From positions 1 through 32,907 of the forward strand of contig JACPJY010000157.1 of the NCBI GenBank assembly GCA_016187325.1: a stretch of 32,907 nt of DNA, read 5' to 3'. The notes beneath the pieces are model-generated. The model ran no database searches and was not told the DNA's origin. It was given only the letters and a program-made list of their open reading frames with translations. This DNA is from Rhodospirillales bacterium. Its GTDB lineage: Bacteria > Pseudomonadota > Alphaproteobacteria > Rhodospirillales > Casp-alpha2. The translations under genes were made by a program, and so were the position numbers. How positions within the stretch are numbered: the first letter of the stretch is position 1; each line of letters starts with the position of its first letter. Shown piece after piece: positions 1-32,604 of this stretch.

Positions 1-2355
1 CGCTGCCCTGACGGCACCAGCACCATGCACAGCGACTTGACCAAGGTGCGCCAGACCTTGTTCAACCTTCTCTCCAACGCCTGCAAATTCACCGACCGCG
101 GGCGGATCGTGCTCGACGTGTCGCGCCATGGAAAAGGCAGCAAGACACGGTACCGCTTCGCCGTCTCCGACACCGGCATCGGTATGTCGGAGGCCGAGAT
201 CGCCAGGGTTTTCGAAGCCTTCGCTCAGGCCGGTGCCGGCACGTCGTCGCAATTCGGCGGCACCGGGCTCGGGCTCGCCATCACCCGCCGTTTCTGCGAG
301 TTGCTCGGCGGCGGCGTGACGGTGACCAGCCAAAAGGGCAAGGGCTCGACCTTCGTCATCGAGCTTCCCGCCGATCTCAAGGCGGCGACGCTGCCGGCGC
401 GCACCGTCGATGCCGACCGGGCACCGGCCGCCGGCGCCGCCGCCGGGGTCAGGAAGCCAACCGTGCTGGTGATTGACGACGACGCCGTCGTCCGCGATCT
501 GCTCCGCCGCTACCTGACGCGTAACGGCTATAACGCGGTGCTCGCGGAAAGCGGCGAGGAGGGAATCCGCCTTGCCGGCGAGATGTCGCCCGACGCCATT
601 ACGCTCGACGTGCTGATGCCGCAAATGGACGGCTGGGCGGTTCTGAAGGCGCTGAAGGACGATCCGGCGGTTGCCGATATTCCCGTCATCATGCTGACCA
701 TCGTCGACGACAAGAACCTCGGCTTCTCGCTCGGTGCGGCGGATTATCTGGCGAAGCCGGTGGACCAGGCGAAACTGATTCAGATTCTCGAACGGCATTG
801 CCCGAAGGCCGGCCAGGCGCGGGTGCTGGTAGTCGAGGATGAAGAATCGACCCGCCGCATGATGCGCCTGATCCTGGAGCGCGAGGGCTGCGTCGTCGCC
901 GAGGCCGAGAACGGCCGCGTCGCCCTCGAGCGGCTCGACGCGGGCCCACCCGATCTAATCGTGCTCGACCTGATGATGCCCGAAATGGACGGATTCGAGT
1001 TCCTGGCGGAGTGCGGCAAGAACGAAACCTGGCGCAAGATCCCAATCGTCGTGATGACCGCCAAGAAGCTGACCGCCGCCGACCGACGGCGCCTGGAAGG
1101 GGGCGTGGCGATGCTGCTGGAGAAGAGCGACGACGACCTGGATGCGCTGCTGGCGTTGCTCCGCGACGTGATCGCCAAGCGGCCCGGGCCGACGCCGGCG
1201 GCCGCCCCTCCCGCGTCGACGGCGAAAACGGCCGACGATCGAGCAGTTTCCCAGATTCCGGTCATCAAAGGCTCAGCGGCGGTCGCCGGCCGGCCGCTGA
1301 CGACCGGCCACGTCCTGGTGGTCGACGACCTGGAGACCAACCGCGAGCTGCTGAAGCGCCATCTCGTCCGCGACGGCCACACCGTGACCCTTGCCGACGG
1401 CGGCCGGCAGGCGTTGGCGGTCGCCGACCGCGAGCCGTTCGACGTCATTCTCCTCGATTTAATGATGCCGGACCTGAACGGATTCGCCGTGCTGTCCCGC
1501 CTCAAGGCCGACGGCCGGACCGAGAACATCCCGGTCATCATGATTTCAGCGTTGAACGAGGAGAAGCACGCCATCCAATGCATCGAGGCCGGCGCCGAGG
1601 ACTATCTTACCAAGCCGTTCGATATCGTGCTGCTGCGGGCACGGATCAACTCCTGTATCGAGCGCAAGCGCGCCCACGATCGCGAGGAGGTCTACCGGGT
1701 GCGCCTGGAGGCGGAAAAGGAAAAATCCGAGGACCTGCTGCTCAACATCCTGCCGCCGAAGATCGTCGATCGCATCAACGCCGGCGAGGAATTGATCGCC
1801 GATCGGTTTGATAGCGTCAGCGTGCTATTCTCGGACTTGGTCGGGTTCACCGAGATTTCGGCGTCGATGGGGCCGTCAGAGCTGGTCCATAGTCTCAACC
1901 GGCTATTCTCCTGCTTCGATCTTCTGGCCAAGCAGTTCGGAGTCGAGAAGGTGAAGACCATCGGCGATGCCTACATGGTAGTTGCCGGCCTGCCCGACCC
2001 GAAGCCCGATCATAAGGAGGCTTGCGCCGAAATGGCGCTCGGCATGATCAAGGTGCTCGACGAGATCAACCCGACCTTGGCCAAGCCGTTCGACATCCGG
2101 ATCGGCATCCACAGCGGTCCCGTGGTCGCCGGCATCATCGGCAAGCACAAGTTCGTCTACGACGTTTGGGGGAGCACGGTGAACGTCGCCAGCCGCTTCG
2201 AATCATACTGCATTCCCAACCACATTCACGTATCGGCCGAGTTGGCCGGCCCGCTGGCGGAAAAATTCGTTTTCGAATCCCGGGGATTGCTGAAGATGCG
2301 CGGCGTCGGCGAAATCGAGACGTTCTTCCTCAAGGGCCGCAAGGGCGCCGCCTGA
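1..2355 (+). CDS. Hybrid sensor histidine kinase (5' end outside window) fused to three receiver domains and a C-terminal class III adenylate cyclase domain
   Basis: Frame 1 is open from nt 1 (no stop before the ATG at 25), so the gene starts upstream. HATPase_c boxes: [10 protein letters not shown] (N), DTGIGM (G1), GGTGLGLAI (G2). Three REC domains have phospho-Asp contexts [22 protein letters not shown] and [11 protein letters not shown]. The C-terminus has class III cyclase motifs [16 protein letters not shown] and [13 protein letters not shown]. The Lys/Asp specificity pair suggests ATP as substrate. Confidence 0.9.
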
Positions 2356-2386: not shown

Positions 2387-2782
2387 TCACGTCTTGGCGG
2401 GGAAAAATCCCGTCACGGCAGCGCGCAAGGCATCGAGCGAGAACGGTTTCGGCAGGATGGCGTCGGCGCCAATCCTTTCCGCCGCCTTCAGCGCCGCCTC
2501 GGGGGTCATCTCGGAGTAGCCCGCCGAGGTGGCGAGAATCTTTGCTTCGGGGCGCATCCGGCGCATCTCCTGGATGCCTTTGATCCCGCCCATCCCGGCC
2601 ATGAAGATGTCGGTGACGACGAGCGCGTAGTCCAGCCGCTCGAAGTCCTTGAGCGCGTCTTCCATGTTGAGCGCGATGGTCACCCGGAAGCCTTCGCGCG
2701 ACAGTGCCCGGCTGAGGATGTCGAGGGTGTTTTTGTCGTCTTCGACGACCAACACGTTTCGAACGCCCTTGGCTCCCAGCAT
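2387..2782 (-). CDS. Single-domain response regulator (receiver only)
   Basis: The ATG at 2782 is preceded by GAGGGA. The track start at 2821 would overlap the stop of the upstream gene. REC landmarks: VLVVEDD, VVTDIFM, ILATSAG, LPKPF. No output domain. Paralogue of 3307..3708. Confidence 0.88.
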   Translation of the reverse strand: MLGAKGVRNVLVVEDDKNTLDILSRALSREGFRVTIALNMEDALKDFERLDYALVVTDIFMAGMGGIKGIQEMRRMRPEAKILATSAGYSEMTPEAALKAAERIGADAILPKPFSLDALRAAVTGFFPAKT

Positions 2783-2789
2783 CGTTCCC

Positions 2790-3164
2790 TCAGCTTTTCG
2801 ATTGTGGCAGCAAGTTCTCAATTTTCTCGAGCAGCCGGGACAATTCGATCGGCTTGGTGTCGTAATCGTCGCACCCGGCCGCCAAGGCCTTCTCCCGGTC
2901 TCCGGTCATGGCATGGGCGGTGAGCGCGATGATCGGGATGGCGGCTGTTTCGGCCGCCGCTTTCAGCCGCCGCGCCGTCTCCCATCCGTCGATCCCGGGC
3001 AGGCTCAGGTCCATCAGAATGAGGTCGGGGCCGCCCTGGGTAGCCGTACCGATGCCGGTTTCGCCGTCGGCCGCGAGCACCACCTCAAAGCCTCTGCGTC
3101 GAAGCCGCCGCGCCAGCATGTCGCGGTTCATCTCATTATCCTCGATGACCAGAACCTTGGCCAT
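2790..3164 (-). CDS. Single-domain response regulator, DivK-like pattern
   Basis: The ATG at 3164 is preceded by GGGGAGG. Sequence landmarks: MAKVLVIEDNEMNRDML, LILMDLSLPGIDG, IIALTAHAMTGD, DYDTKPI. The stop lies 7 nt before the next receiver gene, so the two are probably co-transcribed. Confidence 0.88.
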   Translation of the reverse strand: MAKVLVIEDNEMNRDMLARRLRRRGFEVVLAADGETGIGTATQGGPDLILMDLSLPGIDGWETARRLKAAAETAAIPIIALTAHAMTGDREKALAAGCDDYDTKPIELSRLLEKIENLLPQSKS

Positions 3165-3306
3165 GTCCTCCCCCTGGGAAGGTCCGCCACCGAGGCGGCT
3201 GGCGGTTAACGGCAATCGCGCTGACGACGGCGCGAATTGCGGGCCGGCCAAGTATAATCGGAAACGCCGCGATCGGAAGAAATTTGTGCCCGGCCGGAGA
3301 CCACGG

Positions 3307-3708
3307 TCATTTCCCGGGACGCCGGTTTTCCAAAAGCCGCGTCATGGTGAGGCGCAGATCGGCGAGCGGGAAGGGCTTCGGCAGGATGGCGTCGGCCCCC
3401 ACCTCGCGCGCCGTTTTCAGCGCCGCTTCCGCCGACATGTTGGAAAAACCGGCGGAGATGGCGATGATCGGCACCTCCGGCCGCGCCTGGCGCATGCCGG
3501 AGATTCCTTTGATGCCGCCCATGCCTTCCATGAACACGTCGGTGATCACCAGGTCGTACTTCCGGCCCTGGAACCTGGCGAGCCCGTCCTCGGCGCGGTG
3601 CACTACGTCCACATGGTGGCCATTCTTGGAGATGACGCGGGAGATCAGCGAGGCGTGGGATTCCTCGTCGTCGATCACCAGTACGTTTAATGGCGATGTG
3701 GCCGGCAA
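3307..3708 (-). CDS. Single-domain response regulator (receiver only)
   Basis: Landmarks: NVLVIDDEE, LVITDVFMEGMGGIKGI, IIAISAG, LPKPF. By hand alignment, about half of the aligned residues are identical to the 2387..2782 product. Confidence 0.88.
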   Translation of the reverse strand: MPATSPLNVLVIDDEESHASLISRVISKNGHHVDVVHRAEDGLARFQGRKYDLVITDVFMEGMGGIKGISGMRQARPEVPIIAISAGFSNMSAEAALKTAREVGADAILPKPFPLADLRLTMTRLLENRRPGK

Positions 3709-8153: not shown

Positions 8154-8469
8154 CTGGAACCCCTCCCGAGAACGGGACCGTTGGGTCGCCGCCCCTTGGC
8201 GAAAAGGTGCGGCCGTCCCGCGTCGGCTGTCAACCGCTAACACCGGCGCCCCCGGGCTCGCGAATCGACCGCCGCAAAACCGCCGCCGGGCCTCAGCGGA
8301 AGCCTGGCGGCGCCTCGGTCATCCAAGAAAAACAACTGATTTTTCAATAAGTTATGTTATGTGACCGCCGTCACTTCCGATTGCTTGGGGATAGGCTAAT
8401 CTCGCCTCCAACGTTCGCGGGCTGACTGCCCCGAAGACACACCCAGGCGGGCAGTCCGGTTTCCCTCGA

Positions 8470-8546
8470 AAAGGCAAACCATCGGAAACGATGGGACGCA
8501 ATACCACCGGCCTAAGGCCACTGGCTATGGCAGCGGGGTTGCCGAA
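8470..8546 (+). promoter_or_regulatory. c-di-GMP-I (GEMM-I) riboswitch aptamer
   Basis: The RNA reads GGCAAACC-AUCG-GAAA-CGAU-GGGACGCAAUACCACCGG-CCUAAG-GCCACUGGC-UAUGG-CAGCGGGGUUGCCGAA. This matches, block for block, the Vc2/GEMM-I aptamer as I recall it. P1: 8473-8477 pairs with 8539-8543. P2: 8479-8484 pairs with 8489-8494, capped by a GAAA loop. The 11-nt tetraloop-receptor halves are at 8511-8516 and 8526-8530. The aptamer ends 3 nt before the AGGAG SD of the next gene. Confidence 0.85.
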
Positions 8547-8559
8547 AGGAGAAACGAAA

Positions 8560-8718
8560 ATGTTCTACATCTTCAAGTCGATCATTGACGGGCTCTGGGG
8601 CTTCTGGAGTGGGATTTTCACGCCCCTGCCCTACGGTAACCCCTACATCGCGACCGTCGTGCTGTTCGTAGCGGTTGCCGTCGTCTGCAAACTGCTCAGT
8701 GGAAGAGGGACCACCTAA
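8560..8718 (+). CDS. Small (52 aa) hypothetical membrane peptide
   Basis: The ATG at 8560 lies 8 nt after AGGAG (8547-8551). Sequence: MFYIFKSIIDGLWGFWSGIFTPLPYGNPYIATVVLFVAVAVVCKLLSGRGTT, with one clear C-terminal TM helix. Its stop overlaps the PilZ start (TAATG). The track start at 8491 lies inside the aptamer. Confidence 0.65.
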   Translation: MFYIFKSIIDGLWGFWSGIFTPLPYGNPYIATVVLFVAVAVVCKLLSGRGTT

Positions 8719-9023
8719 TGACAAAAGCAATGTGTGCACCGGAACGGCGGCAAAACGAGCGGTTTCCGTTGACTCTCAAGGCCGAGGTCAGTTTCGGGGA
8801 AGGCGAACTCGACGCGAAAATCTACGACCTGTCGTCTTCGGGGGCGAAGCTGCGGCTTAAGAAGAACCTGCTGAAGAGCATCGTGCTCAGCATACCGCCG
8901 TTCGGGGTTTTCGAAGGCGAAGTCGCTTGGACCGATGAAGAATTCATCGGCATCAAGTTCAACGAGGATCACAAGGCGATCATCAACCTGATCCTCGAGC
9001 ACGTGGCCGGGACCGCTCCCTGA
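8718..9023 (+). CDS. Stand-alone PilZ domain protein (c-di-GMP receptor)
   Basis: 101 aa. RRQNER matches the RRxxxR motif and DLSSSG matches the D/NxSxxG motif, with the usual spacing of about 30 residues. Confidence 0.85.
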   Translation: MTKAMCAPERRQNERFPLTLKAEVSFGEGELDAKIYDLSSSGAKLRLKKNLLKSIVLSIPPFGVFEGEVAWTDEEFIGIKFNEDHKAIINLILEHVAGTAP

Positions 9024-9046
9024 TCCCTGCTCCCGGCCCGGGCTCT

Positions 9047-9109
9047 CGTGCCGGAATCCACGGGGCCGGCACGATAAGGCGGCGGCGGTACCTCCCAACC
9101 GCCGCCGCC
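9047..9109 (+). terminator. Two tandem GC-rich hairpins downstream of the PilZ gene (putative terminator, no U-tract)
   Basis: Hairpin 1: CGTGCCGG (9047-9054) pairs with CCGGCACG (9066-9073). Hairpin 2: GGCGGCGGCGG (9078-9088) pairs with CCGCCGCCGCC (9099-9109). No T-run follows either one. Confidence 0.4.
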
Positions 9110-9198
9110 GAGCCCGCGTCGGCCGCCTAATCACAAAACCGGAAGATACCGGCGCTCGGACGCATCCGGCCGGCCTCGCATGGCAGGAGGGGAAACCC

Positions 9199-9204
9199 TA
9201 TAAT
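9199..9204 (+). promoter_or_regulatory. Candidate -10 box (TATAAT) for the LysR gene
   Basis: Perfect TATAAT about 40 nt upstream of the ATG at 9243. The -35 region is weak (TCGCAT at 17-nt spacing). Confidence 0.3.
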
Positions 9205-9242
9205 CGCGGTTGCATCGCCCGCACGCGGGCCGCATCCAGCGG

Positions 9243-10226
9243 ATGGTCATGAGTCATCGCGATAATTTGCAACCGCTCGACGAGCAAGGGAATGACGGCA
9301 GCACGCCCTCTTGGGACGGCTTCGAGGCGCCGCTCCGCTACGACTGGCACGATATCGTCTTCTTCCTGGAGTTGGTCCGCCACGGCCAGCTCGTCGGTGC
9401 GGCCAAGCGCCTGAAGGTCAACCACACGACCGTGAGTCGCCGCATGCGCGAGCTCGAGCGCGCCCTGAAGACCAAACTGTTCAGCCGTACCAAATCCGGT
9501 TTCGTGCTGACGGAAGCGGGATTGAAGATCCTCGAACATGCCGAAGCCATGGAGTACCAGGCGAACTCCATCGCCCAGGCGGTCGGCATCGAGGGCGAGG
9601 AAGCCGGCGGCGCCGTGCGCATCGCCACCATGGAGGGAATCGGCAGCTTCTATCTGGGACCGCGCATCAAGCGGTTCCACGATCTTCACCCGGCCGTCCT
9701 GATCGAATTGGTGACGTCGTCCGGACTGATCAACCTATCGCGGCGCGAGGCCGACATTTTCATCAGCTTCCCGCGCCCGGCGGAGCGCCGGCTGTCGGTT
9801 CGCAAGATCGGCGAATTCCAGGTCGGGCTGTTCGCGTCGTCGGCCTATCTGAGGCGTCGCGGCGTGCCGGAGCGGAAGGCGGAACTGGAGGGGCACGATT
9901 TCGTCGACTACATCGACGATATGATCCAAATCCAGGCCGTCCGCTGGCTGACCGACGTGGTGGTGCCGCGCAACGTGGTATTCCGATCGACCAGCCTGAT
10001 CGCCCAGTACACCAGCGCCTCCATGGGGCTGGGGGTCGCCATGCTGCCGACTTTCGTCGCCGCCCATAATCCGGATCTGAAGCGGGTGCTGCCGAAGCTG
10101 TCTGCGACCCGCGACATCTGGCTGTCGGTGCATGAGGACCTGCTGCACACCTCGAAGATCAACGCCGTCATCCGCTTCATCACCGACCAGGTGCGCCGCG
10201 ACCAGGATTTCCTGCTCGGCCAATAA
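9243..10226 (+). CDS. LysR family transcriptional regulator
   Basis: HTH: FFLELVRHGQLVGAAKRLKVNHTTVSRRMRELERALKTKLFSR, followed by a LysR substrate-binding domain. The track start at 9210 is a TTG that overlaps the TATAAT box. ATGs at 9243 and 9249 are more plausible, so the exact start is uncertain. Confidence 0.88.
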   Translation: MVMSHRDNLQPLDEQGNDGSTPSWDGFEAPLRYDWHDIVFFLELVRHGQLVGAAKRLKVNHTTVSRRMRELERALKTKLFSRTKSGFVLTEAGLKILEHAEAMEYQANSIAQAVGIEGEEAGGAVRIATMEGIGSFYLGPRIKRFHDLHPAVLIELVTSSGLINLSRREADIFISFPRPAERRLSVRKIGEFQVGLFASSAYLRRRGVPERKAELEGHDFVDYIDDMIQIQAVRWLTDVVVPRNVVFRSTSLIAQYTSASMGLGVAMLPTFVAAHNPDLKRVLPKLSATRDIWLSVHEDLLHTSKINAVIRFITDQVRRDQDFLLGQ

Positions 10227-10432
10227 GGTCGAGCGGCCCAAACTTGTGTGCATTTTTGCACATTATGTTTCCGATTTTTGTCTTTCATTCTGCAAGAAAC
10301 TTCATCATCGTCTTGCTATCAGCGGCGCAATAAACTGAAAAACGGCGGCTGCCCGGTTGACCGCCACGCCGTTGCCGGACCGTGGACCGGCGCCCGCCGG
10401 TTTCGAACGGCGACCGCAAGGGAGGGGCTTCG

Positions 10433-11293
10433 GTGTCCGATCTCGTCATCATCCTGGCCATGAACGGCTTGGTGTGGGGGCTGATCATCGCGCTCATCGC
10501 GCTCGGGCTCTCCATCATCTTCGGGCTTCTCGACATCATCAACGTGGCGCATGGCGATTTCTTCATGGTCGGCACGGTGTTCGCCTGGACCGTGATTTTG
10601 ATCACCGGCAACTTCTGGCTCGCTTTCCTGATCGTGCCGTTGATCGGCATGCTGCTCGGCTCGCTGGTCGAGCGCGCGGTGATCCGACCGGTGGAGAACT
10701 CGGCGGCGCTCAGCATCGTTGCCACCTTCGGGCTCAGCCTGATCCTGCAGGAAGCCGTGCGCGCCACCTTCGGCGCCACCCCGAAGCGGATCCTGGATCC
10801 GATCGGCGTCACGGTACCGATCCTCGGCCTCGACTACCAAGTGTACCGCCTATTCGCCGCCGCGATCGCCATCGCCGCCATCGTCGCCTTCTTCCTGTTC
10901 CTGCACCGCACCAAGTTCGGTACCTGGATGCGCGCTACCCGCCAGGACCGCGACACCGCCATCGCCATGGGCGTGCCGTCGAACCGCATCTTCGTCGTCA
11001 CCTTCGGTCTCGGCACCGCGTTGGCCATGCTGGGCGGCGTGGTGGCGGCGCCGATCACCACCGTCGAATTCCGTTTAGGGCTGGACGTGCTGCCGCTGTG
11101 CTTCATGGCGGTAATCATCGGCGGACTGGGCAATCTTCCCGGAACGGCGACGGCGGCGGTGTTGCTGGCGTTCGTCGAGGGCATCATCACTAGTTTCGCC
11201 GAGCCGACGACGGCGCGCATCTTCTCGCTGATCTTCATGAGCGGTGTGCTGCTGCTGCGCCCGCAGGGCATTTTCGCGAGGTCGACCCGGTGA
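10433..11293 (+). CDS. Branched-chain-amino-acid-type ABC transporter permease (LivH family)
   Basis: The GTG at 10433 follows GGGAGGGG. NGLVWGLIIALIALGLSIIFGLLDIINVAHGDF is the typical LivH N-terminus. The stop overlaps the next start (GTGA). Confidence 0.88.
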   Translation: MSDLVIILAMNGLVWGLIIALIALGLSIIFGLLDIINVAHGDFFMVGTVFAWTVILITGNFWLAFLIVPLIGMLLGSLVERAVIRPVENSAALSIVATFGLSLILQEAVRATFGATPKRILDPIGVTVPILGLDYQVYRLFAAAIAIAAIVAFFLFLHRTKFGTWMRATRQDRDTAIAMGVPSNRIFVVTFGLGTALAMLGGVVAAPITTVEFRLGLDVLPLCFMAVIIGGLGNLPGTATAAVLLAFVEGIITSFAEPTTARIFSLIFMSGVLLLRPQGIFARSTR

Positions 11294-12315
11294 CGGCGGC
11301 GGGCGTCGCGCCCGCCGGGCCGACGCCCGGCGCATTCTTCGCCGCTGGCGCCGCCGGCTGGGGCTTCGGCGGGCTTGCCGCCGCGCTCGCCCTGTTGCCG
11401 CTGGTGGTGCCCGACTATCAGCAGGTGTTCGTCGCCGAGATCTTGGTGTGGGGCCTGTTCGCGATGTCGTTCGCAATCGTGTTCGGATTCGGCGGCATGC
11501 TGTCGTTCTCGCAAGCGGTGTTTTTCGGCATGGGCTGCTACGGCTTCAACCTCGGCACTCTGTATTTCGGTTTCAACACCTGGGGCGCGGTGGTTTCCGC
11601 CGTGCTCGCCGCGGCTCTGCTCGCGCTACCGGTCGGCTACATCGCCACCCGGGTACGCCACCACCATTTCCTGATTGTCACCGTCATCATTTCGGTGTTG
11701 GTGACGACGGTGCTCGAATCCGGGCACTGGCGCTGGATCGCCGGGCCCTATGTCACGGTGTCGCTGACTTTCGTGCCGGAAGTGCCGCTCGGGTTCACCC
11801 GCTTCAGCTTCATCGATGAATGGGTCGCTTATTATTTCACCGTGGTCATGGTGGCGGCGGCGTTCTTCCTCGCCTGGCGGATCGTTCATTCGCCGTTCGG
11901 CCGCGCCATGCTGGCGATCAAGGACAACGAGATGCGGGCGCAGATGATCGGACTCAACGTCAACAAGCTGCGCTGGATGCTGTTCGTCCTCGCCGCCGGC
12001 ATCGCCGGGCACGCTGGCGCGCTGTACGCGCTGCTGGCCCGCTACACGAACTTGGAGTTTTTCCACTGGATCTATTCCGGCAAGGCCATCGTCATGGCGA
12101 TGATCGGCGGCGTCGGCTCGCTGGTCGGGCCGTTCGTCGGCACCGCCTTTTACATGCTGTCGACCGAGTATCTGTCGCGCTACTTCCAGCAGTTCATCAT
12201 CGTGTTCGGGTTCATCCTGCTGCTGGTCGTTCGCTACGCGCCGGACGGCATCTGGGGCATGGTGTTGCGCGGGGCCAGAGGATTGGGGCGTCATGGGCAG
12301 GCTTCGAAACCTTGA
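11290..12315 (+). CDS. ABC transporter permease, LivM family (copy 1, divergent)
   Basis: GTG start at 11290 overlaps the upstream stop. GGMLSFSQAVFFGMGCYG and AIKDNEMRAQMIGLN fit the LivM pattern. Confidence 0.82.
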   Translation: MTAAGVAPAGPTPGAFFAAGAAGWGFGGLAAALALLPLVVPDYQQVFVAEILVWGLFAMSFAIVFGFGGMLSFSQAVFFGMGCYGFNLGTLYFGFNTWGAVVSAVLAAALLALPVGYIATRVRHHHFLIVTVIISVLVTTVLESGHWRWIAGPYVTVSLTFVPEVPLGFTRFSFIDEWVAYYFTVVMVAAAFFLAWRIVHSPFGRAMLAIKDNEMRAQMIGLNVNKLRWMLFVLAAGIAGHAGALYALLARYTNLEFFHWIYSGKAIVMAMIGGVGSLVGPFVGTAFYMLSTEYLSRYFQQFIIVFGFILLLVVRYAPDGIWGMVLRGARGLGRHGQASKP

Positions 12316-13300
12316 ACCGATGCAGATCCTGGGTCTGCTGGGCGCGCTGTTCTTCCTGACGGCACCTTACGCGCTGCCGCTGGTGGTTCCCGGCTTCTGG
12401 GTCAACATCACGGCCGAGATCATGATTTGGGCCCTGTTTGCGGCCAGCGTCAATTTGCTGTTCGGGTACACCGGGCTGCTGTCGTTTGGCCAGGCGCTAT
12501 ATTTCGGCATGGGTGCCTATGGGGTCGCACTGTCGATCGAGTTTTTCCACTTCTCGTTCTGGCCGGCGGCGCTGACCGGCATCGCGGTGGCGACGCTGAG
12601 CGCCTTCGTCACCGGCATCTTCGCGGCGCGCCTGACGTGGCATTACTTCGCCATCATCACCGTCGTGTTCTCGTTGATCTTCTTCTTCTTCGCCGTCGGC
12701 TGGAAGGACGTCACCGGCGGCGACGACGGGATGCCGTTCACCATGCCGCCGGTGCTGAAGGTCGGCGGCCTCGAGTTGAGCCTGCTCGACCTCACGTTCC
12801 AGTATTATTTCATCCTGGCGGTCGTCGGCGCCTGCTTTGGGATGATGCATCTGCTCCTGAAAAGCCCGCTCGGCTACGCCTTCATCGCGGTGCGCGAGAA
12901 CACGGCCAGGGCCGGTCTCGTCGGCTACAACGCCTACATGGTGCGGTTGTTGTCGTTCGTCTTCTCTGGCTTCTTCGCCGGCGTCTCGGGGGTGCTGTTC
13001 GCGCTGTTCTCGCGCTACGCGTCGGCGCATTTCCTGTTCTGGACGGTATCGGGCGAGGGCGTGGTGTGGGCTGTCGTCGGCGGCGCCGGCACGCTGTTCG
13101 GCCCGGTCCTCGGCACCGCGTTCCTGATCGTCATCCGCGAAGAGCTGAGCGCCTATTGGGAGCACTACCTGCTGGTCGTCGGCGTCATCGTCATCCTGTT
13201 CGTGACCTATGCACCCCAGGGCATCATGGGCTTGCTGAGAAAGGCCATCGCCCGCTACGCGCGGCCGGCGGCCGGCGATGGAAGGGGGGCCAGGCCATGA
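12293..13300 (+). CDS. ABC transporter permease, LivM family (copy 2)
   Basis: The ATG at 12293 comes after GAGGA. Matches: TGLLSFGQALYFGMGAYG, VTGGDDGM, AVRENTARAGLVGYN. It overlaps the previous gene by 23 nt and the next as ATGA. Confidence 0.85.
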   Translation: MGRLRNLEPMQILGLLGALFFLTAPYALPLVVPGFWVNITAEIMIWALFAASVNLLFGYTGLLSFGQALYFGMGAYGVALSIEFFHFSFWPAALTGIAVATLSAFVTGIFAARLTWHYFAIITVVFSLIFFFFAVGWKDVTGGDDGMPFTMPPVLKVGGLELSLLDLTFQYYFILAVVGACFGMMHLLLKSPLGYAFIAVRENTARAGLVGYNAYMVRLLSFVFSGFFAGVSGVLFALFSRYASAHFLFWTVSGEGVVWAVVGGAGTLFGPVLGTAFLIVIREELSAYWEHYLLVVGVIVILFVTYAPQGIMGLLRKAIARYARPAAGDGRGARP

Positions 13301-14064
13301 CCGGGCCGGTACTCGAAACCCAGAGCCTGACCAAGAGCTTCGGCGGCTTGGTCGCCGTCGACCATGTCGACTTCACGCTGCCGGGCGGCGGGCTGCACGC
13401 CATCATCGGCCCCAACGGCGCCGGCAAGACGACGTTCTTCAACCTGATCTCGGGGTTCCTGCCGGTGACCGCCGGGCGGGTGGTGTTCCATGGCCGAGAC
13501 ATCACCGGCAAAAGGCCGCATGAGATCAGCCGCCTCGGCATCGCCCGCACGCTGCAGATCAAGAGCGTATTCAACGGGCTTACAGTCATCGACAACGTGT
13601 GGATCGCGGCCAAGGGCCAGTCCCGCTTCCTGCACCCGTTCCGTCCCGCCTCCAGCTATACCGACGTCGCCCGCGAGGCCGAAGCATTGCTCGACGACAT
13701 CGGACTCGCCGGCCATCGTGACGAGATCGCCGGCAACCTGTCGTACGGCGACATCGCGCTCCTCGAGATCGCCATCGCGTTGGCGACCAAGCCCAAGCTG
13801 CTGCTGCTCGACGAGCCGGTGTCGGGCATGAGCCCAAACGAGACCCAGCGTACGGTCGAAATCATCAAGAACGTCTCCAAGCGGCTCGACGTCATCCTCA
13901 TCGAGCACGACATGGAGGTGGTGTTCGGCGTCGCCGACGTGATCACGGTGATGACCCAGGGAACGATCCTGTGCCAGGGATCGCCGGATGCCGTGGCCAA
14001 AGATACGCGGGTCCAGGAGGCGTATCTGGGCACGCCCGAAGACGAGGAGGCGGCTGGTGCTTAA
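13297..14064 (+). CDS. ABC transporter ATP-binding protein (LivG family)
   Basis: Start at the ATG at 13297 (MTGPVLETQSL). The long track ORF from 12427 is a frame artefact across the permease gene. Walker A GPNGAGKTT, signature LSYGD, Walker B LLLLDEP, H-loop IEHDM. Confidence 0.9.
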   Translation: MTGPVLETQSLTKSFGGLVAVDHVDFTLPGGGLHAIIGPNGAGKTTFFNLISGFLPVTAGRVVFHGRDITGKRPHEISRLGIARTLQIKSVFNGLTVIDNVWIAAKGQSRFLHPFRPASSYTDVAREAEALLDDIGLAGHRDEIAGNLSYGDIALLEIAIALATKPKLLLLDEPVSGMSPNETQRTVEIIKNVSKRLDVILIEHDMEVVFGVADVITVMTQGTILCQGSPDAVAKDTRVQEAYLGTPEDEEAAGA

Positions 14065-14764
14065 GCTCGAGGGGCTGCATACTCATTACGGCAAAAGCCA
14101 CGTGCTGCAGGGCGTCGACCTCGAGGTGAGGGACGGCGAGGCGGTGGCGCTGTTGGGGCGCAACGGCGTCGGCAAGACGACGACGCTGCGCAGCATCATG
14201 GGCCTGACCAAGCCCTCGGGCGGCGCCGTGACCTTCGCCGGCACCCGGCTCGACCGCATCCAGCCGCATCTGATCGCCGGTCTCGGTCTCGGCTACGTGC
14301 CGCAGGGGCGGCGCATCTTCCCCAACCTCAGCGTGCTGGAGAATCTATGCATCGGGCTCGCCCGGCCGCCGGGCAAGGCCGCCCTCGACGACATCTATTC
14401 CCAGTTCCCGATCCTCAAAGAGCGCGCCGGCCAGGCCGGCGGCACGCTGTCGGGCGGCGAGCAGCAGATGTTGGCGATTGCGCGCTGCCTGATCATGAAG
14501 CCGAAGATGCTGCTGTTGGACGAACCCACCGAAGGCATCATGCCGAAGATGGTGACGACGCTAAAACACAAGATCCGCGCCGTCAACGAGGCCGGCATAT
14601 CCATCCTGCTGGTCGAGCAAAATTTCGTGATGGCCCTGGCCCTCTGCCCGCGTATCTACATCATGGAGAAAGGTGTAATATGCTACCAGGGCACGGCCCA
14701 AGAACTCCACGACAACCCCGACATCGCGCACCGCTTTCTGGGCGTTGCTGTCGACAACCGTTGA
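14057..14764 (+). CDS. ABC transporter ATP-binding protein (LivF family)
   Basis: The GTG at 14057 follows GAGGAGG and overlaps the LivG stop. Walker A GRNGVGKTT, signature LSGGEQQ, Walker B LLLDEPTEG. Confidence 0.9.
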   Translation: MLKLEGLHTHYGKSHVLQGVDLEVRDGEAVALLGRNGVGKTTTLRSIMGLTKPSGGAVTFAGTRLDRIQPHLIAGLGLGYVPQGRRIFPNLSVLENLCIGLARPPGKAALDDIYSQFPILKERAGQAGGTLSGGEQQMLAIARCLIMKPKMLLLDEPTEGIMPKMVTTLKHKIRAVNEAGISILLVEQNFVMALALCPRIYIMEKGVICYQGTAQELHDNPDIAHRFLGVAVDNR

Positions 14765-14798
14765 AGGTTTGATTTTTCATTTTCCAGGGAGAAGAACC

Positions 14799-16079
14799 AT
14801 GAAGAAGACGTCACGGCGAAGTTTCATGAAAATGGTGCTGGCGGGAGGCGTCCTGGGTCAGGGGCTGAACTTGACGCTGGCGCGCGACTTATTCGCCAAG
14901 CCGACGGGCGCGCCGATCGTCATCGGCCACCAGTGCGACCTCACGGGCGGCATCTCGTCCTGGGGCTACTGGCTGGACAAGGCGGCCAAGGCGGCATGCG
15001 ACCACCTGAACGCAAACAACGGCATCGCCGGCCGGCCGGTCGAATACGTGGTCGAGGACACCGAGACCAACCCGCCCACCGGCGCCCGCAAGTTCCGCTC
15101 GCTGGTGCAGCGCTCGAAGGCGGATTTCGTCATCGGCTCCGTTCACTCCGGCGTCAATCTCGCCACGGTGCCGATCGCCAAGGAGCTGAAGACCATCTAT
15201 ATCCCGCAGGGCATGGCCAACGAGATGACCGGCGCCAAGGGCAACCGCTATACCTTCCGCGTCGGCAGCGACACCTATTCGCAGGCCGCCGCTGGCGCCG
15301 CCTGGGCGCTCAAGAACCTGGGCAAGAAGTGGAGCTTCATCTTCGCCGATTACGGCTGGGGCTGGAGCCACTTCAAGGAGCACGAGGCGGTGCTGAAGGG
15401 CCTCGGCGGGGCGAAGATCAACGCGCCGATCGCCGTGCCGCTGGATGCCAAGGACCTGCTGCCGTATCTGGCCAAGGTGGAGAAGGACACCGAACAGCTC
15501 TACTCGATCTTCTTCGGCTCGCAATCGGTGGCCTACTACACCCAGTCGAAGTCGCTCGGCATGGACAAGCGAATGAACCGCTATTCGGTTCTCTGCACCC
15601 ATGAATCCATCTCGCCGAAGGAGATGGCAGGCGCCTCGGAAGGCATCTTCCTCCTCGAGTACCACCCGCGCATGCTCAAGTACAAGGATACGCCACACAA
15701 CAAGAAGGTCCGCGAGCTGATGAAGGTGGACCCGGTGGACGGCCGCGAGGACGGATCCAACCGCATTCTCGCCAGCAGCCACTACTGGGCGACCTGGGAG
15801 AGCGTCTTCTTCATCCAGAAGGCGATCGAGAAGTCGGGCTGGAAGGCCAAGAAGGACACGCCCGAGTTCATCAAGGCGCTCGAGGGCATGCAGGTGAAGG
15901 AATCCTTCGAGCACCCGCAGGGCAACAAAGTCATGCGGGCCAAAGACCACAAGGCGGTGATCGACTTCTACATGAGTCGGATCGAGAACGGCGAAATCCA
16001 CGTCAAGCACAACATTCCGGCGGCCGACGTGGAAAGCCGCTTCCCGCCGCAGTTCGACTTCACCAAGGAGTCGTTCTAA
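14799..16079 (+). CDS. Periplasmic substrate-binding protein (Liv/amide-type, Peripla_BP_6-like) with twin-arginine signal
   Basis: ATG at 14799 (MKKTSRRSFMKMVLAGG...). SRRSFMK is a near-consensus Tat motif. The mature part has the type I periplasmic binding-protein pattern (VIGHQCDLTGG, VVEDTETNP, VIGSVHSG). Confidence 0.85.
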   Translation: MKKTSRRSFMKMVLAGGVLGQGLNLTLARDLFAKPTGAPIVIGHQCDLTGGISSWGYWLDKAAKAACDHLNANNGIAGRPVEYVVEDTETNPPTGARKFRSLVQRSKADFVIGSVHSGVNLATVPIAKELKTIYIPQGMANEMTGAKGNRYTFRVGSDTYSQAAAGAAWALKNLGKKWSFIFADYGWGWSHFKEHEAVLKGLGGAKINAPIAVPLDAKDLLPYLAKVEKDTEQLYSIFFGSQSVAYYTQSKSLGMDKRMNRYSVLCTHESISPKEMAGASEGIFLLEYHPRMLKYKDTPHNKKVRELMKVDPVDGREDGSNRILASSHYWATWESVFFIQKAIEKSGWKAKKDTPEFIKALEGMQVKESFEHPQGNKVMRAKDHKAVIDFYMSRIENGEIHVKHNIPAADVESRFPPQFDFTKESF

Positions 16080-16095
16080 CCGAGCACCCCTCCCG

Positions 16096-16123
16096 GGGCG
16101 GCGCATCCGGCGTTACGCCGCCC
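16096..16123 (+). other. Intra-operon GC hairpin between the binding-protein and nitrilase genes
   Basis: GGGCGGCG (16096-16103) pairs with CGCCGCCC (16116-16123), with a 12-nt loop. Only a short TTT follows. Confidence 0.3.
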
Positions 16124-16166
16124 TGGGGGCTTTCCCGATTCGATCGCCGGAGCGAGGGGTATTTCG

Positions 16167-17231
16167 ATGGCGACTTATCCCGCCTACAAGGTAGCGGCTG
16201 CCCACGTGGCGCCGGTGTTCCTCGACGCCCCCGCCACGGTGGAGAAGGCGTGCGCGCTGATCGCCGAAGCCGCCAGGAACGGCGCCCGGCTGATCGCCTT
16301 TCCGGAAACCTACGTGCCGGCGTTCCCGGTGTGGTCGGCGCTGCGCGCGCCGATCTACAACCATGATCTGTTCAAGCGGTTGGCGGCGGGCGCGGTCCGG
16401 GTGCCGGGGCCGGAGGTGGCGAAAATATCGGCCGCCGCCAAGAAGGCCGGCATCTTCGTTTCCATCGGCGTCAACGAGGGCACGACGGCGAGCGTCGGCT
16501 GCATCTGGAATTCGAACATCCTAATCGGTGACGACGGCGCCATCCTCAACCACCACCGCAAGATCGTGCCGACCTACTTCGAGAAGCTCACCTGGGCCAA
16601 TGGCGACGGCGCCGGCTTGCGCGTCGTCGAAACGGCGCTCGGGCGCATCGGCGCGCTGATCTGCGGCGAGAACACCAACCCGCTCGCCCGCTTCACCCTG
16701 ATGGCAGAAGGCGAGCAGCTGCACATCTCCAGCTACCCGCCGGTGTGGCCGACCCGCGACCCGAAGGGCGGCGGCAACTACGACCTCGCCGCCGCCATCC
16801 GCGTGCGCGCAGGCGCCCATTCATTCGAGGCAAAGTGCTTCACCATCGTCGCCTCCGGCTTCATGGACAAAGCGATGCGCGACCAACTCGCGGGGCTCGA
16901 CAAGGAGGCCGGAAGGATTCTTGATAACAGTCCGCATGGCGTTTCTATGGTGCTGGCACCCGACGCCTCGATCGTCGGCGACACCTTGAGCGGCGGGGAG
17001 GGCATCCTCTATGCACCGATCGACCTGGAGGCCTGCGTCGAGCCGAAGCAGTTCCACGACGTCGTCGGCTATTACAACCGCTTCGACATCTTCAAGCTCA
17101 CCGTCGACCGTTCGCGCAACCGGCCGGTGACATTCGCCGCCGAAGACGTGATCGGTGAAGCCGCCGCCACGCCGTCGGCGGGTGAGGGCCGCGGCCGCCG
17201 CGGCCCGGCGAAGCTGGAGATCGCCGGCTGA
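16167..17231 (+). CDS. Nitrilase-superfamily carbon-nitrogen hydrolase (nitrilase-like)
   Basis: The ATG at 16167 follows GCGAGGGG. Catalytic triad contexts: AFPETY (Glu), HHRKIVPTYFEKLTW (Lys), GALICGENTNPL (Cys). Confidence 0.88.
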   Translation: MATYPAYKVAAAHVAPVFLDAPATVEKACALIAEAARNGARLIAFPETYVPAFPVWSALRAPIYNHDLFKRLAAGAVRVPGPEVAKISAAAKKAGIFVSIGVNEGTTASVGCIWNSNILIGDDGAILNHHRKIVPTYFEKLTWANGDGAGLRVVETALGRIGALICGENTNPLARFTLMAEGEQLHISSYPPVWPTRDPKGGGNYDLAAAIRVRAGAHSFEAKCFTIVASGFMDKAMRDQLAGLDKEAGRILDNSPHGVSMVLAPDASIVGDTLSGGEGILYAPIDLEACVEPKQFHDVVGYYNRFDIFKLTVDRSRNRPVTFAAEDVIGEAAATPSAGEGRGRRGPAKLEIAG

Positions 17232-17860
17232 TGCGCGCCGCCGTGCAAAAGGTCGCAACCGCCGCCGCGCCGGGCGCGGCGTTGCCCGCCCGCGCGTTGT
17301 GGGTCGGCGGCATGGTGGCGCTGGTGCTGGCCCTGCCGCCGCTGATCTACGCGGTGCTGGCCTGGCGACAGGCCGGCTTCCTCAACGTCAGTGGGTTCAT
17401 CCCCTACGAGGAACTGATGGGCGCCATCGAATCCGGTGATCCCGAGCTGGTGCTGGCGGCGGCGCTGGTGTCGGTGAACATGACCAGCGGCGACATCCTT
17501 GCCAACATGTACCAGCTGACAGTCGAGCAGCTGTTGTTGTCGGCGGCGCTGGGGGCGGCGATCGGCCTCACCCTCGACGCCCAGGTCCGGCTCAGCAAGG
17601 CGTGCGCGCCGGGCGCCGTGGGTGGCTCGGCGGCGGCGGCCGGCTCCGGCCTCGCCGCCACGGTGGCGGCGTCGTCGACCGGCATCCTCGGCTGCTGCGG
17701 CTCGGGGCTGGCCGGCGGCGTGCTGGCGCTCGCCGGCATCACCGGCGCCACCGCCGCCCATATCGCCGAGTATTCGTATTTCGTGCAGTTGGCGCTGATT
17801 GGGGCGTTCGCGTTCGCCTATTTACGCTTCGCTCGTCGTCTGAAGGCACTCGCCGCCTGA
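17231..17860 (+). CDS. Hypothetical integral membrane protein (about 5 TM, GCCGSG motif)
   Basis: The ATG overlaps the nitrilase stop (TGATG). Third codon positions are strongly G/C in this frame. Hydrophobic segments include LWVGGMVALVLALPPLIYAVLAW and YFVQLALIGAFAFAYL. I recognise no family. Confidence 0.6.
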   Translation: MRAAVQKVATAAAPGAALPARALWVGGMVALVLALPPLIYAVLAWRQAGFLNVSGFIPYEELMGAIESGDPELVLAAALVSVNMTSGDILANMYQLTVEQLLLSAALGAAIGLTLDAQVRLSKACAPGAVGGSAAAAGSGLAATVAASSTGILGCCGSGLAGGVLALAGITGATAAHIAEYSYFVQLALIGAFAFAYLRFARRLKALAA

Positions 17861-17885
17861 CGACCCGTCGAAACAACCAAAAACC

Positions 17886-18650
17886 TCACCGTCCGAGCTG
17901 GGTGTATACGGCGTCGGCGAGTTTCAAAAGCTCTTCGCGCGTCATCTTGCCGGCGAGCGCGTAGCCGAGCGGCCCGTCGATCCAGTAGAAGATGGCGACG
18001 CCTTTCTCCTCGGCGTAGCGGAACGCGGTCTTTCCGCGCTGTGCCGGATCGGTGACCACGTAGAGCGTCAGACGACGGCCGCCCTTGTCCTCGTACATGA
18101 ACTGGGCCGCCGGCCCGTCGGTCGCCGACAGCAGCCGGCCGCCGACCAGCAAATACCCGGCATCGACCAGGCGCGGCGCCCTGAGCGGCGCGCCCAGCAC
18201 ATTCGACAGCCAAGTCACCAGGTGCGCTTCCTCGTCGCCGCGGACCTCGACCGGATGGCGCTTCTGCGGCGTGAATACGGCGTGCGCGACCGCGGCCTGG
18301 TGGACCACCGCGGTGCCGGGCGCGGCCGCCGGCGTGAACATCCCGCCGGCCTGCCAGCCGAGGACGCCGCCGGCGACCAGCAGTACTGCCGCCGCGGCGG
18401 CCCAACGCGCATGCAGCGTCCGGCGGCTGGCTGTCGGCAGCCCGAGTTGCCGCGGCAGGGGTTCCTTGAGGATCGGGTCGAATGCGGCCTTGAGCGCTGT
18501 CTTCTGCGTCCGATAGGCGGCGACGCGGGCGGCCGCCTCGGGATTTTCGGCAAGGTGCGCCGCCACCTCGCGCTGCCGGGCCTCATCGAGCTGGCCGTCG
18601 ACGAAGGCGTGCAGGTCCATTTCGCTCACGGGTTCGGAAGGTTTTGTCAT
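17886..18650 (-). CDS. Anti-sigma factor (single-pass membrane protein, Cys-less zf-HC2-like N-terminus)
   Basis: The ATG at 18650 (MTKPSEPVSEMDLHAFVDGQLDE...) overlaps the sigma gene stop as ATGA. One TM segment (WAAAAAVLLVAGGVLGW), followed by a periplasmic domain. Confidence 0.8.
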   Translation of the reverse strand: MTKPSEPVSEMDLHAFVDGQLDEARQREVAAHLAENPEAAARVAAYRTQKTALKAAFDPILKEPLPRQLGLPTASRRTLHARWAAAAAVLLVAGGVLGWQAGGMFTPAAAPGTAVVHQAAVAHAVFTPQKRHPVEVRGDEEAHLVTWLSNVLGAPLRAPRLVDAGYLLVGGRLLSATDGPAAQFMYEDKGGRRLTLYVVTDPAQRGKTAFRYAEEKGVAIFYWIDGPLGYALAGKMTREELLKLADAVYTQLGR

Positions 18651-31416: not shown

Positions 31417-32604
31417 ATGAACAAACCGACCAAACAAAAAGCACCGCCCGGCGCCGCCTTGCTGCAACGTCTGCGGACGATGGAGCCGAAGAGCGCCCAG
31501 GGTCTGTCGCTGATCCTGCTGTCGCTCAGCGCCCTTCCCACCGGCAGCGCCGAGGACAAATTCTGGAACGGCATCGACGAGTTGCTGTGGGGCTACAAGC
31601 AGCGCTACGAGGGAGAGCTCTACGAGCTGTCGCAGGCCGACCGCGCGCTGCTGATCAAGTTTTCCGAATTCAGCGAGATCGGCATGCTCAGCGACCTCAA
31701 GGTCGCAATCCTGCGGCTGATCCAGCAATATCTGCCGGAGCATTTCGGCTTGGTCGACCAGACCCGACTGCTCCGCAACATCGACCTTCGCGTCAAGCTT
31801 TCAAACGCCGTCAAGTTCCTCGAGCACTACGAGAAACAACCGGGCAAGACCGGCGACAAGGGCGTCAAGCTCCGCCCGCTGCAGGAGGGTGACATCGACA
31901 TGGTGGTCGACGTCAACAAGAAGGTCGGCCACGCGCAGTTCAGCAAGATTTTCGTTCAGCACCAGAAGATCGCCCAGGTCGCCCCCGGAAAGCCGCCGAC
32001 GCCGGTGATGAACGAATACTTCATCGGCATGGACGCGCTGAAGAAGCACGTGTTCACCAACGTCGAGCTGCGCGCGTCCGGCAACCTGTTCAATCAACTG
32101 ACGATAACCCTCGACCGGCTGTTGATCGAGGCCTTTCAGGAAGTCAATCCCGAACGCAAACGATGCTCCATCAATCTCAACGTCGAGAGCGTCTTCACCC
32201 GCACCTTCGAGACTTTTCTTGGCGACGCGGACAGCAAGGCGCTGACCGACATCCTGTTCGAATTCCGGCAGGCCAATATCCTGCAGCACTTCGATGAATT
32301 CGAGATCGCCGCCAACCTGATCCGGTCGCGCGGCGGCACCATCGCCATCGATGCCATCTTCGCCGAGACCGTCGGCCTGGTGAACCTGTCGAAACTACGC
32401 GCAGCGGTGGCCAAGGTCTTTTGGCGGCCCGGCGCCGAATCGATGCTCCCCAAGCAGCATGCCGAGATCAAGAGGATGCAAGACGCCGGCGTGATCTTCG
32501 TGATCGCGCGACTCGACGACGAGGTCGGCATCCAGGTCGGCCAGCAGCTCGGCATCACGCTGTTCCAGGGATTCCACGTCGACCAACTTCTGAAGACGGC
32601 CTAG
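31417..32604 (+). CDS. Hypothetical protein with an unrecognised N-terminal half and a degenerate EAL-like C-terminal domain (RimA-like position)
   Basis: 395-aa ORF, about 58-60% GC. The C-terminal landmarks align by eye to an EAL domain: GMDAL, INLN, ILFEF, IAIDAIF, VAKVF, VIARLDDE, FQGF. No clear SD precedes the ATG at 31417; an alternative ATG lies at 31480. Confidence 0.7.
   Translation: MNKPTKQKAPPGAALLQRLRTMEPKSAQGLSLILLSLSALPTGSAEDKFWNGIDELLWGYKQRYEGELYELSQADRALLIKFSEFSEIGMLSDLKVAILRLIQQYLPEHFGLVDQTRLLRNIDLRVKLSNAVKFLEHYEKQPGKTGDKGVKLRPLQEGDIDMVVDVNKKVGHAQFSKIFVQHQKIAQVAPGKPPTPVMNEYFIGMDALKKHVFTNVELRASGNLFNQLTITLDRLLIEAFQEVNPERKRCSINLNVESVFTRTFETFLGDADSKALTDILFEFRQANILQHFDEFEIAANLIRSRGGTIAIDAIFAETVGLVNLSKLRAAVAKVFWRPGAESMLPKQHAEIKRMQDAGVIFVIARLDDEVGIQVGQQLGITLFQGFHVDQLLKTA

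Follow-up and report, generated by a model that had tools for sequence, protein, structure and literature searches.

Riboswitches of the cyclic di-GMP class I (c-di-GMP-I, or GEMM-I) have been known since 2007-2008. A reference member of this class is Vc2 from Vibrio cholerae, located in the 5' untranslated region of tfoY, where the closing helix P1, formed with the ligand bound, represses translation (PMC11705072). On the protein side, PA4608/MapZ and PA0012 from Pseudomonas aeruginosa and DgrA from Caulobacter crescentus are PilZ receptors of about 100 residues, with the RxxxR and D/NxSxxG motifs. To our knowledge, the gene of none of these proteins follows a riboswitch or is coupled to one for a small membrane peptide. 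Here we describe a locus where the two kinds of sensor meet, in a stretch of 32,907 nt (contig JACPJY010000157.1, hereafter the window) from an uncultured Rhodospirillales bacterium from soil. In this locus, an element that we regard with high confidence as a functional c-di-GMP riboswitch stands directly in front of two coupled genes, one for a small membrane peptide and one for a single-domain PilZ protein. Its regulated genes are unrelated to tfoY and its host belongs to the Alphaproteobacteria, a class not listed among the GEMM-rich groups of the 2007 survey (PMC1950547). In a literature search of incomplete coverage, we found no paper on a c-di-GMP riboswitch before a PilZ gene or before this peptide family, and no description of a conserved c-di-GMP riboswitch module in Alphaproteobacteria. 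Within that coverage, the search agrees with an earlier note on this DNA, whose author knew of no characterised module with riboswitch, peptide and PilZ.

The earlier note, made from the letters of the window without database searches, had assigned the element to this riboswitch class and had proposed a covariance-model search as a check. A scan of the entire window against Rfam 15 with cmscan returned a single match, to RF01051 (c-di-GMP-I, GEMM-I), with a score of 81.5 bits and an E-value of 9.3e-15, spanning the whole model (positions 1-87 of 87). This score exceeds the gathering score of 35 more than twofold and bears out the assignment. The match lies in cis, in front of the operon and on its strand, with 13 nt between its end and the ATG at 8560, a 5' regulatory position found likewise in 28 other contigs.

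In GEMM-I RNAs, the first hairpin is built of a 2-bp stem, an internal loop of 3 nt and a 6-bp stem, and ends in a GNRA loop; where this loop is GAAA, it meets a tetraloop receptor in the second hairpin (PMC1950547). The same architecture is found in the window, with two adjacent hairpins, the first one comprising the 2-bp stem, the internal loop AAA (8476-8478), the 6-bp stem CCAUCG/CGAUGG (8479-8484/8489-8494) and a GAAA cap (8485-8488), and with both halves of the 11-nt GAAA tetraloop receptor (CCUAAG, 8511-8516, and UAUGG, 8526-8530). The conserved blocks listed in the earlier note are all present, namely GGCAAACC at 8473-8480, GGGACGCAA at 8493-8501 and CAGCGGGGUUGCCGAA at 8531-8546. The element shares with Vc2 the Rfam family, the tetraloop and its receptor, and the aligned ligand contacts, since G8473, A8500 and C8542 fall in the model alignment on G20, A47 and C92 of Vc2, a numbering taken from the crystal structures. 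Position 20 is diagnostic in this class, a G marking specificity for c-di-GMP and an A for cyclic GMP-AMP (cGAMP), a rule from the GEMM-Ib literature. All of the 16 aligned aptamers carry G at this position, the A at the A47 position is invariant too, and the 3' GCC block, where the C92 position lies, keeps both of its Cs almost without exception.

Two details of the earlier reading have to be revised. The first one is P1, which had been drawn as GGCAA (8473-8477) paired with UUGCC (8539-8543). These segments are complementary, but the helix conflicts with the consensus pairs of Rfam, which map on the window as G8474-C8499, C8475-G8498 and U8539-A8503. It was therefore ruled out as the closing helix: G8474, C8475 and U8539 pair elsewhere, and G8473 and C8542 would contact the ligand. 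The complementarity is no independent evidence of pairing, because both segments are consensus blocks of the family. The true closing helix would instead be the one between an anti-Shine-Dalgarno (anti-SD) segment at the 5' border of the aptamer (8459-8466) and the Shine-Dalgarno (SD) sequence. The second detail is the distance from the aptamer to the SD, given as 3 nt, which is 1 nt from the Rfam match to AGGAG, or 4 nt if counted from UUGCC.

The structure is also supported by its evolution. In an alignment of 18 leaders, two-sided changes are seen in 12 of 36 pairs; shuffled alignments give a mean of 5.4, and none of 500 shuffles reaches 12. Pairing holds in 92% of the cells, a share that drops to 29-45% once the partners are slid along each other. 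Most of this covariation comes from P0, a hairpin of the leader upstream of the aptamer, and the aptamer helices contribute five two-sided pairs. In the first hairpin, the pair 8482/8491 changes from U-A to C-G in seven sequences, and the second hairpin shows compensatory change as well. The linker between the two hairpins, which is AAA with two exceptions in 322 GEMM sequences (PMC1950547), reads AAU in the window (8500-8502), AAC in the related contigs L002 and L003, and AAA in more distant clades; its first A, the intercalating one, is retained in the window. To judge by its sequence, the element is a genuine c-di-GMP class I riboswitch of the canonical type, and the current understanding of the class stands unchallenged by it. 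Two copies in relatives appear to be decaying: in L040 (2250-2352), the 3' GCC block, in which the ligand-pairing C92 lies, has AA for its two Cs and the start codon is TTG, and in L038 (2247-2349), AGGAAAA stands in place of AGGAGAA and the loop reads GAAAAG. The Rfam scores drop to 59-71 bits in the clade formed by L038, L039, L040 and L042.

The first gene behind the aptamer encodes a peptide of 52 residues with a hydrophobic segment at residues ~28-48 (mean Kyte-Doolittle hydropathy ~2.5), and it has no family match in Pfam or NCBIfam. A profile search with this peptide gathered 39 homologous clusters, almost all of 50-64 residues, and their alignment has 20 invariant columns, including PLPYG.PY and KLL.GR. 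A longer open reading frame (ORF) from the ATG at 8491 (75 residues; P0011, P0014 in some databases) was discarded, since it starts inside the aptamer and lacks an SD, and all homologues begin at the equivalent of 8560. The peptide stop overlaps the start of the PilZ gene (TAATG), as it does in all homologues, either as TAATG or as ATGA, and this overlap implies translational coupling between both genes.

The second gene product scores 45.9 bits with PF07238, for which the cutoff is 22.5, and its motifs are intact, as the earlier note had said, with RRQNER at residues 10-15 and DLSSSG at residues 37-42. Residues R11, R15 and G42 do not vary among 13 relatives. In an AlphaFold (AF2) model with a pLDDT of 72, the protein is predicted to fold into six strands and a C-terminal helix, and the top Foldseek matches in the PDB are PA4608/MapZ, PlzA, PA0012 and VCA0042. 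The model thus resembles the six-stranded barrel plus C-terminal helix of PA4608/MapZ and PA0012, its best structural matches, whereas sequence identity to the solved PilZ structures is only 14-26%, and a sequence search of the PDB returned a single marginal match, to VCA0042. With this domain match and both motifs, the product would be a canonical PilZ protein of the c-di-GMP-binding type.

Relatives of the locus were collected as contigs by protein identity and by a metagenome scan with the PilZ alignment. A word-indexed search retrieved close relatives only, at 78% identity or more for the peptide and PilZ alike, and an exhaustive HMMER search gave just one cluster with an identity of at least 50%, followed by relatives at 30-53%. 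The closest genome is a metagenome-assembled genome (MAG) of Rhodospirillales, and the members of the PilZ cluster carry no annotation beyond that of PilZ domain-containing proteins from Rhodospirillales MAGs. A scan of species-representative genomes gave a single locus, in a Rhodospirillales MAG, so the taxonomic breadth rests on metagenome contigs and on one Magnetovibrio-labelled peptide. The module is conserved among diverse uncultured Rhodospirillales-like bacteria, sampled in soil, groundwater and marine environments.

The order aptamer, peptide and PilZ was found in 26 contigs besides the window, with a PilZ identity to that of the window from 99% down to 38%. The complete aptamer matches in these relatives score 59-81.5 bits in Rfam, and the aptamer of L048 was detected with our own model. 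The synteny survey proposed in the earlier note found the aptamer directly upstream at every locus with peptide, PilZ and sufficient upstream DNA, with the exception of L045. The module suggested in that note does recur, but PilZ is not its constant partner: in L046 and L047, whose peptide is labelled Magnetovibrio sp. in NCBI, the aptamer and the peptide are kept and the coupled second gene is a non-PilZ ORF of 63 residues. Conversely, none of the eight contigs with a PilZ relative, no peptide and at least ~260 nt of upstream sequence has an aptamer. As PilZ without the peptide has no aptamer, and L046 and L047 keep the pair without PilZ, the peptide is the constant partner of the aptamer, and the riboswitch-peptide pair represents the constant core of the module, with PilZ as its usual partner. 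The flanking genes vary even in close relatives, with TctC or response regulators upstream, and a LysR regulator or a pair of anti-sigma factor and extracytoplasmic function (ECF) sigma factor downstream, and the module is inherited as one unit.

In the most distant relative, L045, the peptide and a PilZ-like gene (30% identity) are found at 500-880 without a recognisable aptamer; its leader of ~130 nt has no match to any Rfam family at E <= 1 nor to our own model, and the riboswitch sensor may have been replaced or lost there. This locus is preceded by two tandem TGTGA-N6-TCAC sites. The 63-residue ORF of L046 (2257-2703) and L047 (928-1374) is helical and has no family match in Pfam or NCBIfam. 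On a 500-kb contig shared with L001, L014 carries at 3001-3306 a paralogous small PilZ gene (39% identity) without peptide and riboswitch, adjoining a response regulator and a large PAS protein; of the PilZ paralogues on this contig, only one would thus be under riboswitch control.

The expression platform of the window differs from that of Vc2. The ribosome-binding site masked in Vc2 is said to be distant from the aptamer, as Inuzuka et al. reportedly found in 2018. In the window, the SD itself, 1 nt past the aptamer match, forms the 3' strand of the extended closing helix (helix B), and the leader adds an upstream competitor, UCGCGGG, and the covarying hairpin P0 (Table 1).

Table 1. Features of the riboswitch locus, in coordinates of the window.
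Feature	Coordinates	Strand	Remarks
CRP-type palindrome TGTGA-N6-TCAC(T)	8360..8375	+	Centre at 8367.5; putative site for a CRP/FNR-family activator
-10-like hexamer TAATCT (TAnnnT)	8397..8402	+	Fixed spacing to the palindrome
UUCGCGGG, proposed anti-anti-SD, 5' strand of helix A	8414..8421	+	Pairs with CCCUCGAA, 8463-8470; central C.U mismatch
Leader hairpin P0	8424..8456	+	GACUGCCC, 8424-8431, with GGGCAGUC, 8449-8456
Anti-SD GUUUCCCU, 5' strand of helix B (extended P1)	8459..8466	+	Pairs with AGG(A)GAAAC, 8547-8555
c-di-GMP-I (GEMM-I) aptamer	8463..8546	+	RF01051 score, pair map and covariation in the module family
Shine-Dalgarno region AAGGAGAAAC	8547..8556	+	AGGAG at 8548-8552, 7 nt before ATG 8560; 3' strand of helix B
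Peptide ORF, 52 residues (MFYIFKSIIDGLWGFWSGIFTPLPYGNPYIATVVLFVAVAVVCKLLSGRGTT)	8560..8718	+	ATG at 8560; hydrophobic C-terminal segment
PilZ protein, 101 residues, single domain	8718..9023	+	PF07238 match; start overlaps peptide stop (TAATG)
Two GC-rich hairpins past the PilZ stop	9046..9109	+	9046-9054/9066-9074 and 9078-9089/9098-9109

Helix B is part of the minimum-free-energy fold of the window, where it closes the aptamer like an extended P1. Its duplex amounts to -9.0 kcal/mol, a value equalled by 0.75% of shuffles, and 93% of its cells are paired. The pair 8466/8547 shows a compensatory change from U-A to A-U in L021, and in L046 the outer part of the helix is altered on both strands, from GUUU/AAAC to GCC/GG(A)GC. 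Helix A, also of -9.0 kcal/mol (1.8% of shuffles as good), is the minimum-free-energy fold for L009 and L046; 96% of its cells are paired, with no covariation, and its central C.N mismatch is retained in all sequences. The (U/C)GCGGG of its 5' strand (UCGCGGG, 8415-8421, in the window) shows no variation among the 18 leaders that were aligned; in 20 of 21 leaders it begins 12 nt after the -10 hexamer, the spacing being 10 nt in L046. Together with CCC.CGA, it is invariant across clades where even the aptamer stems vary. P0 is predicted in 19 of 19 leaders despite clade-specific sequences, and six of its eight pairs are altered on both sides. When each fold is imposed, the ensemble energies of fold A and fold B are at most ~3 kcal/mol apart in most of the window clade. 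In the Magnetovibrio-labelled lineage (L046 and L047), P0 is much shorter, and the flanks of the anti-SD and the SD are altered on both strands.

According to the mechanism that we propose, transcription would start at about 8409, from a promoter with a -10 but without a -35 element that probably needs a CRP/FNR-family activator bound at -41.5. The leader would then adopt one of two mutually exclusive folds of similar predicted stability. In fold A, UUCGCGGG would pair with CCCUCGAA, enclosing P0 and leaving the SD free. In fold B, GUUUCCCU would pair with AGG(A)GAAAC, so that the aptamer is closed and the SD buried. Binding of c-di-GMP to the three-helix junction, at G8473, A8500 and C8542, would stabilise the closing helix, as it does in this class of riboswitch. 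High c-di-GMP would therefore shift the RNA to fold B, in which the peptide and, by way of the coupling, PilZ are translationally repressed. The PilZ receptor would be made chiefly at low c-di-GMP, as a receptor down-regulated by its own ligand.

That control is exerted at translation initiation is probable. The SD begins right after the aptamer match, and a terminator scan called no intrinsic terminator on the forward strand between 8463 and 8560, in line with the earlier note, which had expected none between aptamer and ATG; in this the locus would again be comparable to Vc2, where there is no terminator, control is placed at translation, and the ligand-stabilised P1 is linked to repression. 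The terminator called at 8494-8479 was set aside, being the minus-strand image of the first aptamer hairpin. As for the direction, which the earlier note had not specified, P1 of the pilM GEMM-I RNA forms only with ligand (PMC9262584). From this link between ligand and P1, in Vc2 as in the pilM RNA, c-di-GMP should favour helix B and mask the SD, and by analogy a translational OFF switch is the direction that we favour, by a modest degree.

Several points weigh against this proposal. The argument from P1 is not compelling by itself, because some GEMM-I members, such as Cd1, bind the ligand without P1 (PMC9262584). Helix A never varies, so that covariation neither supports nor contradicts it, and the invariance of UCGCGGG could reflect an initial transcribed sequence or a protein site instead. 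Helix B, in turn, has one compensatory pair and one rearranged homologue in its favour, is mismatched at its inner or outer ends in four to five sequences, and, when forced, is much less stable than fold A in several distant homologues. The thermodynamic model masks the SD of the window to about the same degree whether or not the aptamer is constrained, and because of this similar accessibility, the energetics of secondary structure alone show no switch and leave ON and OFF undecided. The AAU linker, instead of the near-universal AAA, might weaken ligand binding. Finally, the leader RNA is known here from sequence and computation alone.

The best of the alternatives is an ON switch, in which binding of c-di-GMP frees the SD and the peptide and PilZ are made only with the ligand present, as a coherent feed-forward. 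The class has ON members (Vc1, and pilM for cGAMP) as well as OFF members (PMC11705072, PMC9262584), the SD of the window is already masked in the ligand-free model, and, biologically, it is plausible that a receptor is produced only in the presence of its ligand. Furthermore, a ligand-free GGCA/UGCC pairing, seen in the fold of L005, extends the closing stem, and the ligand, by breaking this pairing, could loosen the stem. We nevertheless consider an ON switch unlikely: the 3' half of the aptamer has no sequence complementary to the SD, such complementarity being the usual design of translational ON switches, the sole anti-SD lies 5' of the aptamer and is brought onto the SD when P1 forms, and ligand binding is tied in the literature to the formation of P1, not to its loss (PMC11705072, PMC9262584).

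The aptamer could also act on the transcript, through ligand-dependent Rho termination or RNA decay, with masking of the SD being secondary or absent. The lack of an intrinsic terminator between aptamer and ATG would fit this possibility. An untranslated ORF close to the leader commonly leaves the mRNA exposed to Rho. In addition, Vc2 also controls the stability of an RNA, according to a preprint (bioRxiv 10.1101/617340). We hold this to be improbable, as the sequence gives no specific sign of a Rho-utilisation site, with no search aimed at one, and an aptamer end abutting the SD, together with a conserved anti-SD, is most simply explained by control of initiation. That the aptamer senses another cyclic dinucleotide, such as 3'3'-cGAMP, or is a structured leader with no ligand, is very improbable: the AAU/AAC linkers of the window clade (cf. 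PMC1950547) and the degenerate copies (AA for the GCC-block Cs in L040, the weakened SD of L038, the low clade scores) would be in its favour, but the position discriminating c-di-GMP from cGAMP is G in 16 of 16 aptamers, the score is very high, and the core nucleotides are strongly conserved across clades with differing stems.

A CRP-type palindrome occurs once in the window, against 0.06 expected, and is found at a fixed offset in all loci of the module, where its half-sites never change and its spacer varies. A TAnnnT hexamer begins exactly 29.5 nt 3' of its centre in 21 of 21 leaders. Reading this hexamer as -12 to -7 places the palindrome at -41.5, the class II position of CRP/FNR activators, whose sites overlap the -35 region, and from this geometry we infer the transcription start given above. 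No promoter came out of a scan with the sigma-70 consensus, which fits an activator-dependent promoter without a -35 element. The likeness to class II CRP/FNR promoters lies in this spacing, common to all 21 leaders; the difference is that the start is here deduced from sequence and that the cyclase and cyclic-nucleotide-binding neighbours described below are circumstantial. A promoter of the EcfG type (GGAAC-N16-17-CGTT) was considered because an ECF sigma factor neighbours some of the loci, and was dropped on the leader alignment, where the -35 region varies between clades. Two further segments are kept despite differing upstream genes, namely the motif GCGAATCG, ~100 nt upstream of the palindrome (8260-8267 in the window), and the AT-rich block TTTTCAATAAGTTA, just 5' of it (8341-8354). 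In L013, a PilZ relative (47% identity) that is accompanied by neither peptide nor aptamer has a palindrome of the TGTGA-N6-TCAC type at 160-173, ~60-100 nt before its start, and CRP-type control may predate the association with the riboswitch. At the other end of the operon, the two GC-rich hairpins past the PilZ stop, which lack a T tract and were not called by the terminator scan, may mark the operon end.

The window begins inside a gene (25-2355, forward strand) for the C-terminal part of a protein that joins PAS and histidine kinase domains to three receivers and to an adenylate/guanylate cyclase of class III, whose full-length homologue in L002 has PAS domains and 1327 residues. It is followed by three single-domain response regulators (2387-3708, reverse strand), and then by PrpD and TctABC. 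This kinase-cyclase/response-regulator block remains near the riboswitch module in several relatives, and in L012 a gene for a cyclic-mononucleotide-binding protein adjoins the module. The cyclase block could supply the CRP-type site with a cyclic mononucleotide; the site, the cyclase and the L012 neighbour suggest such a transcriptional input, as circumstantial evidence. Compared with L001, ~8.7 kb are inserted in the window (9100-17900) between the PilZ gene and the anti-sigma/ECF sigma pair, comprising a LysR regulator, an ABC transporter of the branched-chain-amino-acid type and a nitrilase-family gene. Upstream, the PrpD-TctABC block is missing from L002 and L005. The module sits between indel-prone blocks. 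Near the other end of the window, an ORF at 31417-32604 (forward strand) has a sub-threshold match to the EAL domain (24.5 bits, against a cutoff of 31.3), and its product may be a degenerate c-di-GMP phosphodiesterase-like protein.

Taken further, the locus might be a two-messenger gate around a new family of membrane micro-proteins, with a CRP-type ON input from a cyclic mononucleotide and a bistable c-di-GMP OFF riboswitch. The PLPYGDPY peptide, and not PilZ, would be the primary regulated effector, and a membrane-tethered receptor, pre-loaded at low c-di-GMP, would report the next rise in the messenger and then not be replenished, in an incoherent feed-forward of the pulse type. We offer this as a tentative and speculative picture.

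The two classic kinds of c-di-GMP sensor, riboswitches and PilZ receptors, are treated as parallel branches in the literature that we searched. Here, one of these sensors would control the making of the other, in a compact and conserved module. The module defines an unannotated family of small membrane peptides, the gene most tightly tied to the aptamer, and a leader with clear alternative pairings, suited to mechanistic study. With its CRP-type site and the nearby nucleotidyl cyclase, it is a likely junction of cyclic-mononucleotide and c-di-GMP signalling. If the OFF direction is true, the abundance of the receptor would be inverse to that of its ligand, a simple design for adaptation or pulse signalling.

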